DNA of 64,000 nucleotides from Escherichia coli (GCF_050320075.1 NZ_CP190018.1); one strand, 5' to 3'. Positions 6,199-12,885 are shown, counted from the stretch's first letter. Notes: generated by a model not told the origin, from the letters alone. A program made the numbers and translations.

Positions 6199-7098
6199 TT
6201 ATCGCCCCGTAGTGGATATCAGAAAATCAATCAGGGCCTTCACTCTTTTCGTTTTACCCGCGTTTTTGGGGTAATAGAGATACACTGGCGGGTAGGTTTT
6301 CCAGTATCTCTCCATCACCGGAATAAAGCGCTCCCTGTCCGGCTGTAACTGCCAGACAGGCTCAAACAAGCGCCCAATTCCCAGCCCGTTACGGATCCCG
6401 TCTGCCATAACGTCAATATCGTTGCTGATTAACTGCCCCGGCATCTCAACGGTCAACTGCTCACCGCGATCGTTCAGGAGCAGCGGAAGGATGCGGTTGT
6501 TGGTGATAAAACGGTAACCAATCAGCTGGTGATGACAGAGATCTGCCGGCACTTCAGGCGTTCCATGTCGGGAGAGATACGCTGAGGATGCATATAATCC
6601 TTCACGAAACGGTTTCATTAACGGTCGGGCCACCACCCCTCCCTCAAGAATATCGCCAAAACGGATCCCCAGATCAAAACGCTCTTTGATGATATTCACG
6701 GTACCGTCGTAGACCGAAATTTCTAACTGTATACCCGGATATTGCTGACAGAATTCTGCCATCGCAGGCTTAAGAATTAACAGGTAGGCAAAACGCGAGA
6801 GCGTAATTCGCACCATCCCAGAGGGCTCCTGATGCTGGTCGCGAATGCTTTCAAGTGAGTTTTCCAGCGACTCCACCGCCGCAGCGGTCTGTTCCAGCAA
6901 TAATTGACCGGTTTCCGTCAGCTCTATACGGCGGGTCGTACGCACAAAAAGCGGATGGCCGATATACTCTTCCAGCAGCTTTAGTGCATTGCTGACGGAG
7001 GGAGGCGTAATTTCCAGTTTCCTTGCGGCTGCCGAAATATTGCCCTCCCGCGCAATGCTCTGGAAGATGCGAATCTGGTTATAAAGAGCGTTATTCAT
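6199..7098 (-). CDS. LysR-family transcriptional regulator
   Basis: 299 aa; N-terminal HTH IAREGNISAAARKLEITPPSVSNALKLLEE typical of LysR family; divergent from adjacent operon. Confidence 0.85.
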   Translation of the reverse strand: MNNALYNQIRIFQSIAREGNISAAARKLEITPPSVSNALKLLEEYIGHPLFVRTTRRIELTETGQLLLEQTAAAVESLENSLESIRDQHQEPSGMVRITLSRFAYLLILKPAMAEFCQQYPGIQLEISVYDGTVNIIKERFDLGIRFGDILEGGVVARPLMKPFREGLYASSAYLSRHGTPEVPADLCHHQLIGYRFITNNRILPLLLNDRGEQLTVEMPGQLISNDIDVMADGIRNGLGIGRLFEPVWQLQPDRERFIPVMERYWKTYPPVYLYYPKNAGKTKRVKALIDFLISTTGR

Positions 7099-7233
7099 AA
7101 TGTTTTCCTAAGCAATTCTCGCCTGATTATTAAGTACAGTCTAAAAATGCTTAAGTCAATGACCCTCTAATCTTCCTGAAATACGCCTCTTATACTTTAG
7201 TCTCTTTCTACTACGACCTGAGTTCAGGAGACT

Positions 7234-7545
7234 ATGATGCGAATTTTATGTCTGGATATCCCTGCCCCTGGAGCATCGCTGGAGAAATATGCTCCGCACC
7301 TCAACGCTGAAGCGCTGCACGCCTGGGGATTGTATAAATCAGGCTTCATCCGCGACATCTACTTCCGTCAGGACAGACCTGGCGTCGCTATTTTTCTTGA
7401 ATGTGACTCTGTCGATGAAGCGATGAACGTTATGGCCGAATTCCCGTTGGCAAAAGCAGGCTTACTAAGCTTCGAGTGTATACCGCTTGGCTCCTTTATT
7501 AACTGGGAAAATCTCTTCGCCGATGAATTTAAAAATAAAGAGTGA
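7234..7545 (+). CDS. Small muconolactone-isomerase-like (Dabb-fold) protein
   Basis: 103 aa, AGGAG RBS at 7225-7229; pattern W-G-(x)-R-Y-(x)-G-V-F-(x)-S-(x)-EA-M-(x)-PL resembles the muconolactone isomerase family; weak, by recollection. Confidence 0.45.
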   Translation: MMRILCLDIPAPGASLEKYAPHLNAEALHAWGLYKSGFIRDIYFRQDRPGVAIFLECDSVDEAMNVMAEFPLAKAGLLSFECIPLGSFINWENLFADEFKNKE

Positions 7546-7553
7546 GGACCGAT

Positions 7554-8243
7554 ATGAAACCTGCATATAAACCAGTGCTATGTGTCGTTTCCAGCCATCC
7601 GATTAAAGGCGCATCCGGTGTACCAACCGGTTTTTTCCTGGCCGAGCTGACTCATCCGCTGAAAGTACTGGAAGATGCCGGAATAAAAACAACAATAGCC
7701 AGTATTCGCGGGGGGCAGCCACCGGTGGATGGATTTGACCTCAGCGACCCTGTTAACGCCTGGTACTGGAACGAAACCGATTTTCAGCAGCGCCTGGCAA
7801 CAACACCTGCGTTATCCGAGCTGAAAGGTGCCGATTACAGCGCAGTTTTCTTTGCAGGTGGTCATGGGACCATGTGGGATTTCCGTGATAATCAGGATGC
7901 CCAGCGTATTATCCGCGAAGTGTATGAAAGTGATGGGATTGTCTCAGCCGTCTGCCACGGGCCTGCGGCATTGGTTGACGCAAAACTCAGTAGCGGCGAA
8001 TACCTGATAAAAGGGAAAAATGTGGCGGCCTTTACCAACAAGGAAGAGGAAGAAGTTCACACAACAGATGTGGTTCCCTTCCTGCTTGAAACCGCACTTC
8101 GCGAGCATGGTGCGCTTTATCATGAAGCTCCAAACTGGTCTGAAAACGTGGTTACCGACGATCGCCTTATCACGGGGCAGAATCCCGCTTCAGCACATGG
8201 GGTTGGTGTGGCGCTGTTAAATGCACTCCGCCGGACAGCTTAA
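7554..8243 (+). CDS. DJ-1/PfpI (class I glutamine amidotransferase-like) family protein
   Basis: ATG at 7554 with GAGG RBS; conserved AVCHGPAAL nucleophile-elbow-type motif. Confidence 0.75.
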   Translation: MKPAYKPVLCVVSSHPIKGASGVPTGFFLAELTHPLKVLEDAGIKTTIASIRGGQPPVDGFDLSDPVNAWYWNETDFQQRLATTPALSELKGADYSAVFFAGGHGTMWDFRDNQDAQRIIREVYESDGIVSAVCHGPAALVDAKLSSGEYLIKGKNVAAFTNKEEEEVHTTDVVPFLLETALREHGALYHEAPNWSENVVTDDRLITGQNPASAHGVGVALLNALRRTA

Positions 8244-8316
8244 TTAATTCATCGTTACTCACCTTACTTGGCCGGTTTAAGTCAGCCACGATCCGGCCTT
8301 TTTTCAGGAGCTGAAT

Positions 8317-10767: not shown

Positions 10768-10769
10768 CA

Positions 10770-11789
10770 ATGCAGTATACCCGGCTCGGTAAAAGTGACT
10801 TACTTGTTTCCCGCATCTGCATGGGATGCATGGGGTTTGGCGATCCGTCGACGGGTCAGCATAGCTGGACGCTGGACGAAACAGCAAGCCGCGACATCAT
10901 TCGCTATGGCCTTGAAAAGGGCATCAACTTTTACGATACCGCTATAGCCTACCAGAATGGCTCCAGTGAGCGATACGTTGGCCGGGCATTACGGGAGATG
11001 GCGAAACGCGATGATATCGTCCTGGCCACCAAGTTTCTGCCGCGAACCCCCGCACAAATTGCCGGAGGGATCAGCGGAAAAGAGGCAATCGCTCAATCCC
11101 TTGACCAGAGCCTGAAGAATCTGGGGATGGACTATATCGACCTCTACATCTACCACATCTGGGATTACAACACGCCCATTATCGACGTGCTTGAAGCGTT
11201 ACATACCGCTGTTACTGCTGGCAAAGTACGATCTGTTGGTATTTCAAACTGCTATGCCTGGCAGCTGGCGAAGGCGAACGCCCTTGCTGAACGCGAAGGG
11301 CTGATGCCCTTTGTTTCCGTACAGAGCCACTACAATCTAATTATGCGCGAAGATGAACGGGAGCTCTTCGGCCTGTGCACTGAGGATAATATCGCAATGA
11401 CCCCCTATAGCGCGCTGGCCAGCGGCCGCCTCTCTCGTAAAGAAGGCTATACACGGCGAGCCACAGAGGATGACTATGCGCGTGGAAAATATGACAGCAC
11501 GGCTGAACAGGATCGCAGCATTATTGAGCGTGTAGCCGAACTGGCCGAACGCCATCTGGTGTCAATGACGGAAATATCTCTCGCTTGGCTGCTGACAAAA
11601 GTCACATCACCTGTCGTAGGGGCTACAAAAAAAGCTCATGTCGATGGCGCGGTAAACGCAGTAAATCTTCAACTAAGTCCGGAGGAAATTCAGTTTCTGG
11701 AAGAAACCTACCAGCCGCATGTTCTGACGGGGGTCATGGCGCAAAATACGCCGCAAACGAAAGATGTTAAGCAGGTCTGGATGCGATAG
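10770..11789 (+). CDS. Aldo/keto reductase (second paralogue)
   Basis: 339 aa; AKR motifs (FYDTAIAYQNG, LATKF, GISN). Confidence 0.8.
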   Translation: MQYTRLGKSDLLVSRICMGCMGFGDPSTGQHSWTLDETASRDIIRYGLEKGINFYDTAIAYQNGSSERYVGRALREMAKRDDIVLATKFLPRTPAQIAGGISGKEAIAQSLDQSLKNLGMDYIDLYIYHIWDYNTPIIDVLEALHTAVTAGKVRSVGISNCYAWQLAKANALAEREGLMPFVSVQSHYNLIMREDERELFGLCTEDNIAMTPYSALASGRLSRKEGYTRRATEDDYARGKYDSTAEQDRSIIERVAELAERHLVSMTEISLAWLLTKVTSPVVGATKKAHVDGAVNAVNLQLSPEEIQFLEETYQPHVLTGVMAQNTPQTKDVKQVWMR

Positions 11790-11991
11790 CCCTTATTCAC
11801 TTTTCCTCCTCTCGTCTTTGAGAGCGCCAGTAGCGGTCGGTTACGTTCTTACCAGCACCAGTTGATCGAACGTCTTAAACAGTAACGTCAGTAAAAAGAT
11901 CATCGTGAAAAAGACTTTTATGCTTTTAATTTGCATGCAAATAAGCAGCCCTGTCTTTGCAACAAAACCGGACGCGCCGAATAAGCCGGAG

Positions 11992-12630
11992 ATGAATATC
12001 TTCGAGCTCGGCATCAGACCCGATCGGGACAACGACTTTGCAGACGTGGCCAGACAGACGATTTCCGCTTCGGTTGATCATGAAGCAGGTACACTGGCGA
12101 TGTATGCCCTGCAACGCAGCGACAATTCAGGTCAGGCATTCATGTTCGAACTCTATGAAAATGAGCGTGCTTATCGCAAACATCTCAATGCCGCCCCATA
12201 CAAAGCATTCGCTGCTCGTGCACCTGACATTATTGACAGGAAGAAGAAAATTACCCTGGAGCCACAGTTTCTGGGCGACAAACACATCATACCGAATGAA
12301 CGAACTATCAATAATCTGGTGATCGTCGAAGTAAAGCCTGAATTTCAGAGCGAATTTAGAAACATCGTCCTTCCTGAAATGGTCGAGTCGCTCAAAGTAG
12401 AGAAAGGCGTGTTAGCCATGTATGCCGGTACAGATTCAGAGACTCCAAAACGCTGGTATTTCTATGAGATTTACGCCAGTGAGGAGGATTATCAACTGCA
12501 CCGACAAACGCTGCACTTCCTGGATTACCTCAGGCAAACGGCGCATATGAGCGCCAGGAAGGACGCAATCCCGGTAAAACCGGTATTTCTTCGTAACAAA
12601 GGCGGAATCAAACAGGAGCCGCAACGTTGA
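11992..12630 (+). CDS. Tandem ABM-domain (antibiotic biosynthesis monooxygenase-like) protein
   Basis: ATG at 11992 preceded by GGAG; two roughly 95-aa ABM-like halves. The ORF track extends to a GTG at 11905 with a hydrophobic N-terminus, so the start is uncertain. Confidence 0.6.
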   Translation: MNIFELGIRPDRDNDFADVARQTISASVDHEAGTLAMYALQRSDNSGQAFMFELYENERAYRKHLNAAPYKAFAARAPDIIDRKKKITLEPQFLGDKHIIPNERTINNLVIVEVKPEFQSEFRNIVLPEMVESLKVEKGVLAMYAGTDSETPKRWYFYEIYASEEDYQLHRQTLHFLDYLRQTAHMSARKDAIPVKPVFLRNKGGIKQEPQR

Positions 12631-12645
12631 CCAGTAAGGATTAAC

Positions 12646-12885
12646 ATGAAAAGCGTACTTGCAGCAGCGGCTATGTCGCTTGTTATTTCTGATTTTGCTA
12701 ATGCTGAGGAAACAAGAGGTAAAGCTATGATGAAAATAGAACCGTCAGCGATTTCGGAAGCTGATATTCGTTCCGTCTCACCGGCTCTCGCGCGCTTTGG
12801 TCGCGAAGCTATTACTGAAGATCTGTGGACACGCGACGCCCTCTCACCGAGGGATCGTAGAGTAGTTAAACTTACTGTTATTTAA
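12646..12885 (+). CDS. Short ORF with signal-peptide-like N-terminus, possible truncated carboxymuconolactone decarboxylase (AhpD-like) family gene
   Basis: 79 aa, AAGGA RBS; stops at the junction with the AT-rich fimbrial locus; family assignment weak. Confidence 0.35.
   Translation: MKSVLAAAAMSLVISDFANAEETRGKAMMKIEPSAISEADIRSVSPALARFGREAITEDLWTRDALSPRDRRVVKLTVI

Follow-up and report, generated by a model that had tools for sequence, protein, structure and literature searches.

Gene content of the hipA-yneL island

We analysed a window of 64,000 nucleotides from the Escherichia coli chromosome (GCF_050320075.1; NZ_CP190018.1), and concentrate here on the remnant of an accessory island that lies in the interval between hipBA and the ydeQRST fimbrial operon with ydeP. 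A preliminary description of the window had listed at this place a LysR gene facing a string of enzyme genes. The open reading frames (ORFs), their content and their order were all found as described, and the family assignments hold. The cluster is absent from K-12, as had also been proposed; there, hipA is followed after 317 bp by yneL. All parts of the cluster fall into known superfamilies and carry generic RefSeq names. Together they form an uncharacterised cluster of the familiar LysR-linked redox/electrophile-detoxification kind, with the following features (window coordinates; aa, amino acids):

5906-12860, no strand: remnant of the hipA-yneL accessory island; left edge after a GTTAAAT repeat, right edge gone through a later deletion
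6199-7098, minus strand: LysR-type transcriptional regulator (LTTR), 299 aa, intact; end-to-end matches to many LTTR models
7099-7236, no strand: divergent promoter region, 138 bp, with candidate LysR box, TATACT and AGGAG; conserved across genera
7130-7144: predicted candidate LysR box, TTA-N9-TAA (T-N11-A)
7191-7196: predicted -10-like TATACT, downstream of the candidate LysR box
7226-7230: predicted Shine-Dalgarno sequence AGGAG
7237-7545, plus strand: hyp102, 102 aa, leads the module and is its best conserved gene; placed by a structural model within the muconolactone-isomerase/YCII clan, as a divergent member
7554-8243, plus strand: DJ-1/PfpI protein of the small Hsp31/Glx3 type, 229 aa, intact; matches HchA/PfpI models, VCHG Cys-His motif
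8317-9264, plus strand: aldo-keto reductase (AKR) 1, 315 aa, intact
9367-10044, plus strand: amidohydrolase_2 pseudogene of the LigW/hydroxybenzoate-decarboxylase type, ATG at 9367; compared with the Enterobacter mori orthologue
10195-10767, plus strand: Flavodoxin_2-family NAD(P)H oxidoreductase, 190 aa, intact; relative of KefF, GSP14 (general stress protein 14), NQO1 and MdaB
10770-11789, plus strand: AKR2, 339 aa, intact
11803-11885, plus strand: scar of a 952-bp deletion; 11805-11885 encode the C-terminal 26 residues of a second Flavodoxin_2 reductase
11905-12630, plus strand: tandem-ABM protein, 241 aa, GTG start, Sec-type signal peptide
12646-12885, plus strand: 5' remnant of a CMD gene, first 72 codons, with signal peptide and start of domain 1

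Distribution and origin of the island

In strain CE2050 the island has a length of 7,775 bp and is bounded by the 7-bp repeat GTTAAAT. Homology to K-12 ends at the window equivalent of position 5906 of locus L001 and restarts at position 13682 of L001. The preliminary description had called for a check of presence and absence, and the island proved not to be universal: of the 5426 complete E. coli genomes, 489 (9.0%) have some of its sequence and 437 (8.1%) at least 80% of it, at identities of at least 99%. Fragments only are present in 52 of the 489 carriers. The copies are almost all chromosomal, and every inspected copy is located at the hipA-yneL locus. The window interval is 100% identical to that of strains YZLc1-3 and 28Eco12, and Br_167_kylling has the same sequence except for an IS100 insertion and a 2,425-bp segment that is kept there and lost in the window. 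Inspected carriers keep the genes for LysR, hyp102, DJ-1, both AKRs, the Flavodoxin_2 reductase and the ABM protein intact.

Intact and fuller versions of the cluster, at about 91% nucleotide identity, are found on E. mori plasmids and in Rahnella and Pantoea. Synonymous divergence (dS) of the cluster genes is 0.17-0.45 against the E. mori and Rahnella orthologues and about 1.0 against those of Klebsiella pneumoniae, and the ratio of nonsynonymous to synonymous divergence (dN/dS) is 0.02-0.27 across the genes compared. When E. coli is compared with the genera of E. mori and Rahnella, synonymous sites are generally close to saturated, so the low dS points to relatively recent horizontal exchange among Enterobacterales. 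The island is horizontally acquired from plant- and soil-associated relatives and is now eroding in E. coli.

The 102-aa protein and its family

The preliminary description had called the product of the first gene, here termed hyp102, muconolactone-isomerase-like. This holds at the level of the clan; the protein is not a member of the muconolactone isomerase family (MIase; PF02426). Scans with Pfam and NCBIfam gave no significant match, the sole Pfam match being YCII at E=0.34, and a comparison of the sequence with solved structures found nothing meaningful directly, a profile search returning only TftG (E=0.077). Homologues with 62-100% identity occur in Enterobacterales, Burkholderiales, Rhizobiales, Xanthomonadales, Pseudomonas, Myxococcota and Acidobacteria and share the invariant motifs RDIYFRQDRPGV, FPLAKAGL and IPLGxFxNWE. 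The dN/dS of hyp102 is 0.016-0.03.

An AlphaFold model calculated from the homologue alignment (predicted local distance difference test, pLDDT, 91) displays a beta-alpha-beta-beta-alpha-beta barrel half. Its best structural matches are the 5-chloromuconolactone dehalogenase ClcF and muconolactone isomerase, together with two YCII proteins, HI0828 and the 5-chloro-2-hydroxyhydroquinone dehydrochlorinase TftG. Searching with a profile of the family retrieved 1379 representative clusters, of which 473 reached E<=1e-10; Pfam MIase is matched by 21 of 47 sampled members and YCII by 8 of 47. The model and these relatives place hyp102 in the MIase/YCII clan of dimeric alpha+beta barrel proteins, at the level of clan and fold. 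Some members of the wider family, with lengths of 212-309 aa and two matched stretches, are tandem duplications or fusions.

RefSeq and UniProt widely give hyp102 and its homologues of about 100 aa the name superoxide dismutase. No superoxide dismutase model (Cu/Zn, Fe/Mn or Ni) was matched in the Pfam and NCBIfam scans, which leaves the name unsupported, and the label looks like a propagated misannotation.

The hyp102 module in other bacteria

The hyp102 gene marks a widespread LysR-linked module: scanning one genome per species with the hyp102 alignment yielded 80 loci. They belong mostly to plant- and soil-associated bacteria: Rahnella, Pantoea, Serratia, Pectobacterium, Klebsiella, Rhizobium, Mesorhizobium, Bradyrhizobium, Burkholderia, Paraburkholderia, Pseudomonas, Xanthomonas, Duganella and others. 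A tally of the neighbourhoods, which covered only the protein families of the cluster itself, gave:

divergent LysR within 3 kb of hyp102: 77 of 80 loci
DJ-1: 56 of 80
amidohydrolase: 43 of 80, DJ-1 being present in all 43
AKR: 20 of 80
CMD: 20 of 80
ABM: 19 of 80
Flavodoxin_2: 17 of 80
DUF1330: 12 of 80

The amidohydrolase is thus a core partner of the DJ-1 gene in other taxa. All ten genes of the full cluster are present and intact in Rahnella rivi, whose proteins are 86-98% identical to those of E. coli, and in Ca. Pantoea gossypiicola; Ca. Pantoea deserta and Serratia have near-complete clusters. Compact versions are arranged as LysR / hyp102-Flavodoxin_2-AKR-CMD in K. pneumoniae and as LysR / hyp102-Flavodoxin_2-ABM-CMD in Pantoea. 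In other taxa equivalent enzymes stand in: a WrbA-type quinone reductase, hyp102, an Ahr-type aldehyde reductase, DJ-1, an AKR and an amidohydrolase in Burkholderia; AKRs, a Zn-ADH, ABM, DUF1330 and CMD in Archangium; and a flavodoxin/FMN reductase adjoining hyp102 in Trinickia. The recurring theme under a divergent LysR gene is a quinone reductase, a carbonyl reductase, DJ-1, a decarboxylase and a small barrel protein.

On the E. mori plasmid NZ_CP119171 (locus L004), genes for an alkene reductase, an SDR, an oxidoreductase and TetR directly follow the cluster (18919-23816 of L004) and resemble the Pantoea 'alt' thiosulfinate-tolerance cluster (PMC8417944). Upstream of the cluster the plasmid carries three more AKR genes, a gluconolactonase-like gene and another LysR gene, and the 24 kb examined are dense in candidate chemical-defence genes.

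Reductases, DJ-1 protein and amidohydrolase pseudogene

The Flavodoxin_2 protein is homologous to NQO1, MdaB and GSP14, with MdaB among its relatives in the PDB at 1e-15. AKR1 has 97% identity with its E. mori orthologue. The DJ-1 protein belongs to the DJ-1/PfpI superfamily and misses every NCBIfam equivalog cut-off; among characterised PDB structures its nearest relatives are yeast Hsp31 and Candida Glx3, at 1e-27 to 1e-29.

The amidohydrolase pseudogene was compared with the intact 344-aa protein encoded on an E. mori plasmid, where the whole cluster shows the nucleotide identity of about 91% given above. The decay noted in the preliminary description is borne out by three indel lesions. 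A 356-nt deletion at 9499/9500 removed residues 46-163 and shifted the frame, a 2-nt deletion is located at 9850/9851, and an additional C is present at 9937 (+1). A conserved SVDYPY motif has in addition suffered an Asp to Gly exchange. The window gene therefore does not qualify as a LigW-type enzyme, which would need an uninterrupted ORF of some 330-350 aa that retains the conserved residues for metal binding and catalysis. Both deletions are common to the window and CE2050, which differ by about 1% across the remnant; the additional C is specific to the window lineage and is the same in three independent assemblies. The deleted 356 nt were found in none of the 5426 complete E. coli genomes. 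Since separate assemblies show the same lesions, sequencing errors were rejected as the cause of the frameshifts.

The intact E. mori orthologue matches LigW, gamma-resorcylate and 2,3-dihydroxybenzoate decarboxylases at 1e-41 to 1e-47, and its closest structure is the uncharacterised Staphylococcus aureus protein 3nur (7e-73). In the longest segment of the remnant dN/dS is still 0.06-0.09 against E. mori and Rahnella, which implies that inactivation is recent relative to the nucleotide divergence of about 5-6% from these orthologues.

Deletions and exported proteins

Two further losses affect the 3' part of the cluster. In E. mori the genes for an exported DUF1330 protein and for another Flavodoxin_2 reductase occupy a 952-bp segment between the AKR2 and ABM genes. 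Insertion of this segment in E. mori was rejected as an explanation, since the 3' tail of the reductase gene persists in E. coli; together with a longer piece of 105 codons retained by one E. coli strain, the tail argues for a deletion in E. coli. The DUF1330 gene and the second reductase thus add to the losses recognised in the preliminary description.

The CMD gene was cut at 12860/12861, inside its first domain, by a deletion of 2,425 bp. The truncation thus results not from point decay but from this rare, lineage-specific event of 2.4 kb: the junction is present in only two other complete genomes, and the stub is annotated as a pseudogene by PGAP. The same deletion took a yneL-like helix-turn-helix (HTH) remnant and, from ydeQRST, the fimA-like gene that encodes the major subunit. 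The usher gene of the operon (13805-15505) is interrupted by an IS1 element (regions 13044-15505 and 15499-16002); with the fimA-like gene lost and the usher gene cut, the fimbrial operon is also dead in the window strain.

The ORFs starting at 11905 and 12646 had been described as having signal-peptide-like N-termini, and these are conserved in orthologues from several genera. The ABM protein contains two ABM domains (PF03992; E 8e-12 and 5e-11) and starts from GTG 11905 with MKKTFMLLICMQISSPVFA/T. The GTG start and the signal peptide are conserved in Enterobacterales, including Pantoea, and in Archangium, equivalent signal peptides being present in nine Enterobacterales orthologues and the Archangium protein. 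PGAP places the start at ATG 11935, and PDB 3mcs aligns to the protein only from residue 28. Both the conservation and this alignment indicate that the PGAP start skips the signal peptide. The window lineage has a Leu to Gln exchange in the hydrophobic core of the ABM signal (MQISS instead of MLISS), which may weaken export.

The full-length CMD orthologue is an exported protein of 267 aa with two PF02627 domains, the first spanning residues 54-129. The proteins of E. mori, K. pneumoniae, Pantoea, Serratia and Rhizobium share its conserved N-terminus (MKSVLAAAAMSLVISDFANA/EE); lipoboxes take its place in Pseudomonas, Kosakonia and Archangium. Orthologues of the DUF1330 protein also have signal peptides. 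Going by these export signals, the module would have a periplasmic arm of cofactor-independent proteins (ABM, CMD and DUF1330), an arrangement that is plausible because NAD(P)H is presumably not available in the periplasm.

The preliminary description had further termed the last ORF AhpD/CMD-like. It is a truncated CMD gene; its full-length orthologue resembles PcaC and is not an AhpD-type peroxidase, since the 267 aa contain no cysteine and hence no CxxC. As the CMD family includes AhpD, and as KefF tops the NCBIfam matches of the Flavodoxin_2 protein, we considered whether the cluster is an AhpD-type thiol/peroxide antioxidant system or a KefF-like ancillary system that regulates K+ efflux. 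A CxxC being impossible, the AhpD-type reading is excluded; a KefF role is excluded by score and context, the match of 149 bits lying below the cut-off of 210 for KefF (the protein belongs neither to KefF nor to KefG) and no KefC or KefB gene being located nearby. Both variants are effectively refuted by the sequence, and we attach only a very low probability to them.

Against the PcaC model the full-length CMD orthologue scores 116 bits, below the cut-off of 155.7, and the window copy does not belong to the CMD/PcaC group. This similarity, the resemblance of the intact amidohydrolase to LigW and to gamma-resorcylate and 2,3-dihydroxybenzoate decarboxylases, and the MIase fold of hyp102 would suit a catabolic pathway in which the amidohydrolase decarboxylates a hydroxybenzoate-type acid and the product then serves as a carbon source through lactone chemistry of the MIase-like and PcaC-like proteins, as in the beta-ketoadipate pathway. 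In the loci that were read gene by gene, however, no ring-cleaving dioxygenase, hydroxylase, enol-lactonase, thiolase or transporter was found (the tally over 80 species is blind to such enzymes), and the ring-processing that the preliminary description had considered finds no ring-cleavage enzyme to carry it. The predicted export of CMD and ABM would place them away from cytoplasmic catabolism, the PcaC score stays under its cut-off, and generic reductases dominate the gene content. A catabolic role is improbable, and less likely than detoxification.

LysR gene and divergent promoter region

The regulator is of the LysR type, as seen from its length of about 300 aa, near full-length LTTR alignments and a position divergent from the enzyme genes. 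The best NCBIfam equivalog, YafC, is matched with 163 bits against a cut-off of 470, and the protein is not a YafC orthologue by this measure. E. coli, K. pneumoniae, Pantoea and E. mori share a GATTATTAAGTACAGnCTAAAnATGCTTAAGTCAAT block and the TATACT as conserved elements of the intergenic region. The T-N11-A motif lies about 66 bp upstream of the inferred transcription start, and the -35 region is poor; this predicted layout of the spacer between LysR and hyp102 is the usual LTTR geometry. Promoter and terminator counts were not above shuffled expectation, and an Rfam scan of 3000-13500 gave no match to an RNA element.

In E. mori about 1.8 kb with an HTH-domain gene lie between LysR and the operon. 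On either side of this stretch is a copy of a duplicated 49-bp sequence (L004 7915-7963 and 9748-9796), of which the candidate LysR box is a part.

Proposed function and erosion in E. coli

The explanation that we favour, and consider reasonably probable, is an eroding acquired island that would have encoded a LysR-activated defence against reactive aromatic or carbonyl compounds with a periplasmic arm. It builds on gene content, homology, lesions, distribution, conserved synteny and export signals, from which we infer the regulation, the substrates and every catalytic step. The type of function proposed in the preliminary description, detoxification of electrophiles or quinones, fits the protein families and the related loci with equivalent enzymes; LysR regulation and the substrate class are still matters of inference.

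In this scheme the LysR regulator probably activates the divergent enzyme operon on sensing a reactive aromatic compound; quinones, phenolic aldehydes or acids, and alpha-oxoaldehydes are candidates. In the cytoplasm, the Flavodoxin_2 enzyme would reduce quinones by two electrons; Flavodoxin_2 quinone reductases protect against quinones (MdaB; PMC8765430). The two AKRs would reduce reactive carbonyls, and the Hsp31/Glx3-type DJ-1 protein may act on alpha-oxoaldehydes or their adducts. Comparable to TftG and ClcF, hyp102 may isomerise or tautomerise a (hydro)quinone-like or lactone-like intermediate, or catalyse an elimination on it, without a cofactor, and the tandem-ABM, tandem-CMD and ancestral DUF1330 proteins would treat the same class of compounds in the periplasm. 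In the ancestral cluster the LigW-type decarboxylase would have worked with DJ-1 and decarboxylated a hydroxyaryl acid. E. coli, having lost the decarboxylase, DUF1330 and the second reductase, and the window lineage, having lost CMD as well, could at most retain part of the original activity.

A more specific version, which we regard as possible but doubtful, sees in hyp102 an uncharacterised enzyme subfamily of the MIase/YCII group that would be the signature of an undescribed two-compartment detoxification of a specific plant-derived phenolic or quinone, crippled in E. coli. Its partners in plant- and soil-associated Proteobacteria would be DJ-1, the LigW-type decarboxylase and the exported ABM, CMD and DUF1330 proteins.

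Several observations weigh against a LysR-activated defence. Full-text literature searches found no publication on this cluster, the hits dealing with the unrelated Pantoea alt thiosulfinate cluster or being generic lists, and no cluster protein reaches an NCBIfam equivalog cut-off, so that no substrate can be assigned. A promoter scan detected no strong sigma-70 site in the LysR-hyp102 intergenic region, and the promoter assignment consequently relies on cross-genus conservation. With gaps of 73-150 bp within the gene string, a single operon is not established. Signs of erosion are also found outside the window: the IS100 of Br_167_kylling lies in the pseudogene tail, strains 405 and HCP5S3_I2 have large deletions, and the independent damage in strains other than that of the window includes a deletion from the Flavodoxin_2 gene into the fimbrial chaperone gene and an internal stop in LysR together with an ISVsa5-associated deletion. 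This erosion, the lesions of the window included, suggests weak selection in E. coli.

Taken further, the damage could mean that E. coli, and the window lineage in particular, carries the island as a functionless relic, acquired once, unselected and lost piecemeal, with ORFs intact for want of time. Such a course would account for a core amidohydrolase that is dead in every E. coli carrier, for the 952-bp and 2,425-bp deletions, the lineage-specific +1 frameshift and the IS100 insertion, for the 52 of 489 carriers with fragments only, and for the strains with a LysR internal stop or deletions mediated by insertion sequences. It sits less well with the 437 genomes that keep at least 80% of the island at such high identity and with the seven genes that are intact in the inspected genomes. 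The compact versions of K. pneumoniae and Pantoea, which are without DJ-1 or amidohydrolase, indicate that a reduced gene set can be a working unit. The low dN/dS also speaks against a relic, though it mostly reflects the history before transfer. We consider this alternative rather unlikely, and retain the defence against reactive aromatic or carbonyl compounds as the preferred reading.

In E. coli the cluster is a minor accessory island. It records the transfer of genes from plant- and soil-associated Enterobacterales and their subsequent decay in steps, can serve as a lineage marker, and illustrates how pseudogenes may be dated. Its wider value lies outside E. coli, in a recurrent uncharacterised module around the misnamed hyp102 in plant-associated bacteria.

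Genes flanking the island

Between hipA and the island, a SIR2-family gene and an ISNCY transposase remnant (3233-4585 and 4800-5835, both minus strand) are inserted in the window lineage only. For the SIR2-family gene, PADLOC gave a match to the candidate defence family PDC-S25 (E 2e-82) and weaker ones to ThsA, LmuA and Dsr1/2. In strain HCP5S3_I2 the position corresponding to the SIR2 insertion, immediately upstream of LysR, is occupied by an 'ABC-three component system'. The hipA-facing side of the island may be an insertion hotspot for defence genes.

The hipBA neighbourhood itself varies across island carriers. In the window hipA appears as a single open ORF (1654-3033); it is frameshifted in Br_167_kylling (L002 2474-3795) and reduced to its N-terminal domain in strain 405 (L092 140-835).

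Comparison with known systems

E. coli reportedly possesses a quinone redox pair, MdaB-YgiN, consisting of an NADPH:quinone reductase and an ABM quinol monooxygenase. The island similarly pairs a Flavodoxin_2-family reductase with an ABM protein, which PGAP names 'putative quinol monooxygenase'. The island ABM protein is, however, a tandem two-domain protein with a signal peptide, whereas YgiN is single-domain and cytoplasmic, and on both counts the former is not a quinol monooxygenase of the YgiN type. The island reductase is nearer to KefF and GSP14 than to MdaB, and the island comprises many more genes as well as a LysR regulator.

Muconolactone isomerase, ClcF and TftG are dimeric alpha+beta barrel enzymes that act on lactones and chlorohydroxyhydroquinone. 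Compared with these, hyp102 shows only 14-20% identity and has invariant motifs of its own, and in contrast to muconolactone isomerase its genomic partners are reductases and DJ-1, not cat or pca genes. The LigW, gamma-resorcylate and 2,3-dihydroxybenzoate decarboxylases, which are related to ACMSD, differ from the window gene in that the latter is dead, with three indel lesions and a conserved Asp lost.

The island DJ-1 protein resembles the glutathione-independent glyoxalase III enzymes Hsp31 and Glx3 in length (229 aa compared with 237-245 aa) and in the Cys-His nucleophile-elbow motif, matching yeast Hsp31 at 6e-29 and Candida Glx3 at 1e-27. It is nevertheless closer to uncharacterised ThiJ/PfpI structures (4p5p, 2e-48), and in other taxa its gene is closely tied to one for an amidohydrolase_2 protein, which is not so for Hsp31. 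The island CMD orthologue shares two CMD domains with PcaC and aligns to PDB 4g9q at 2e-73; it differs from PcaC as a tandem protein that is predicted to be exported, by a Sec signal or a lipobox, and that has no pca genes nearby.

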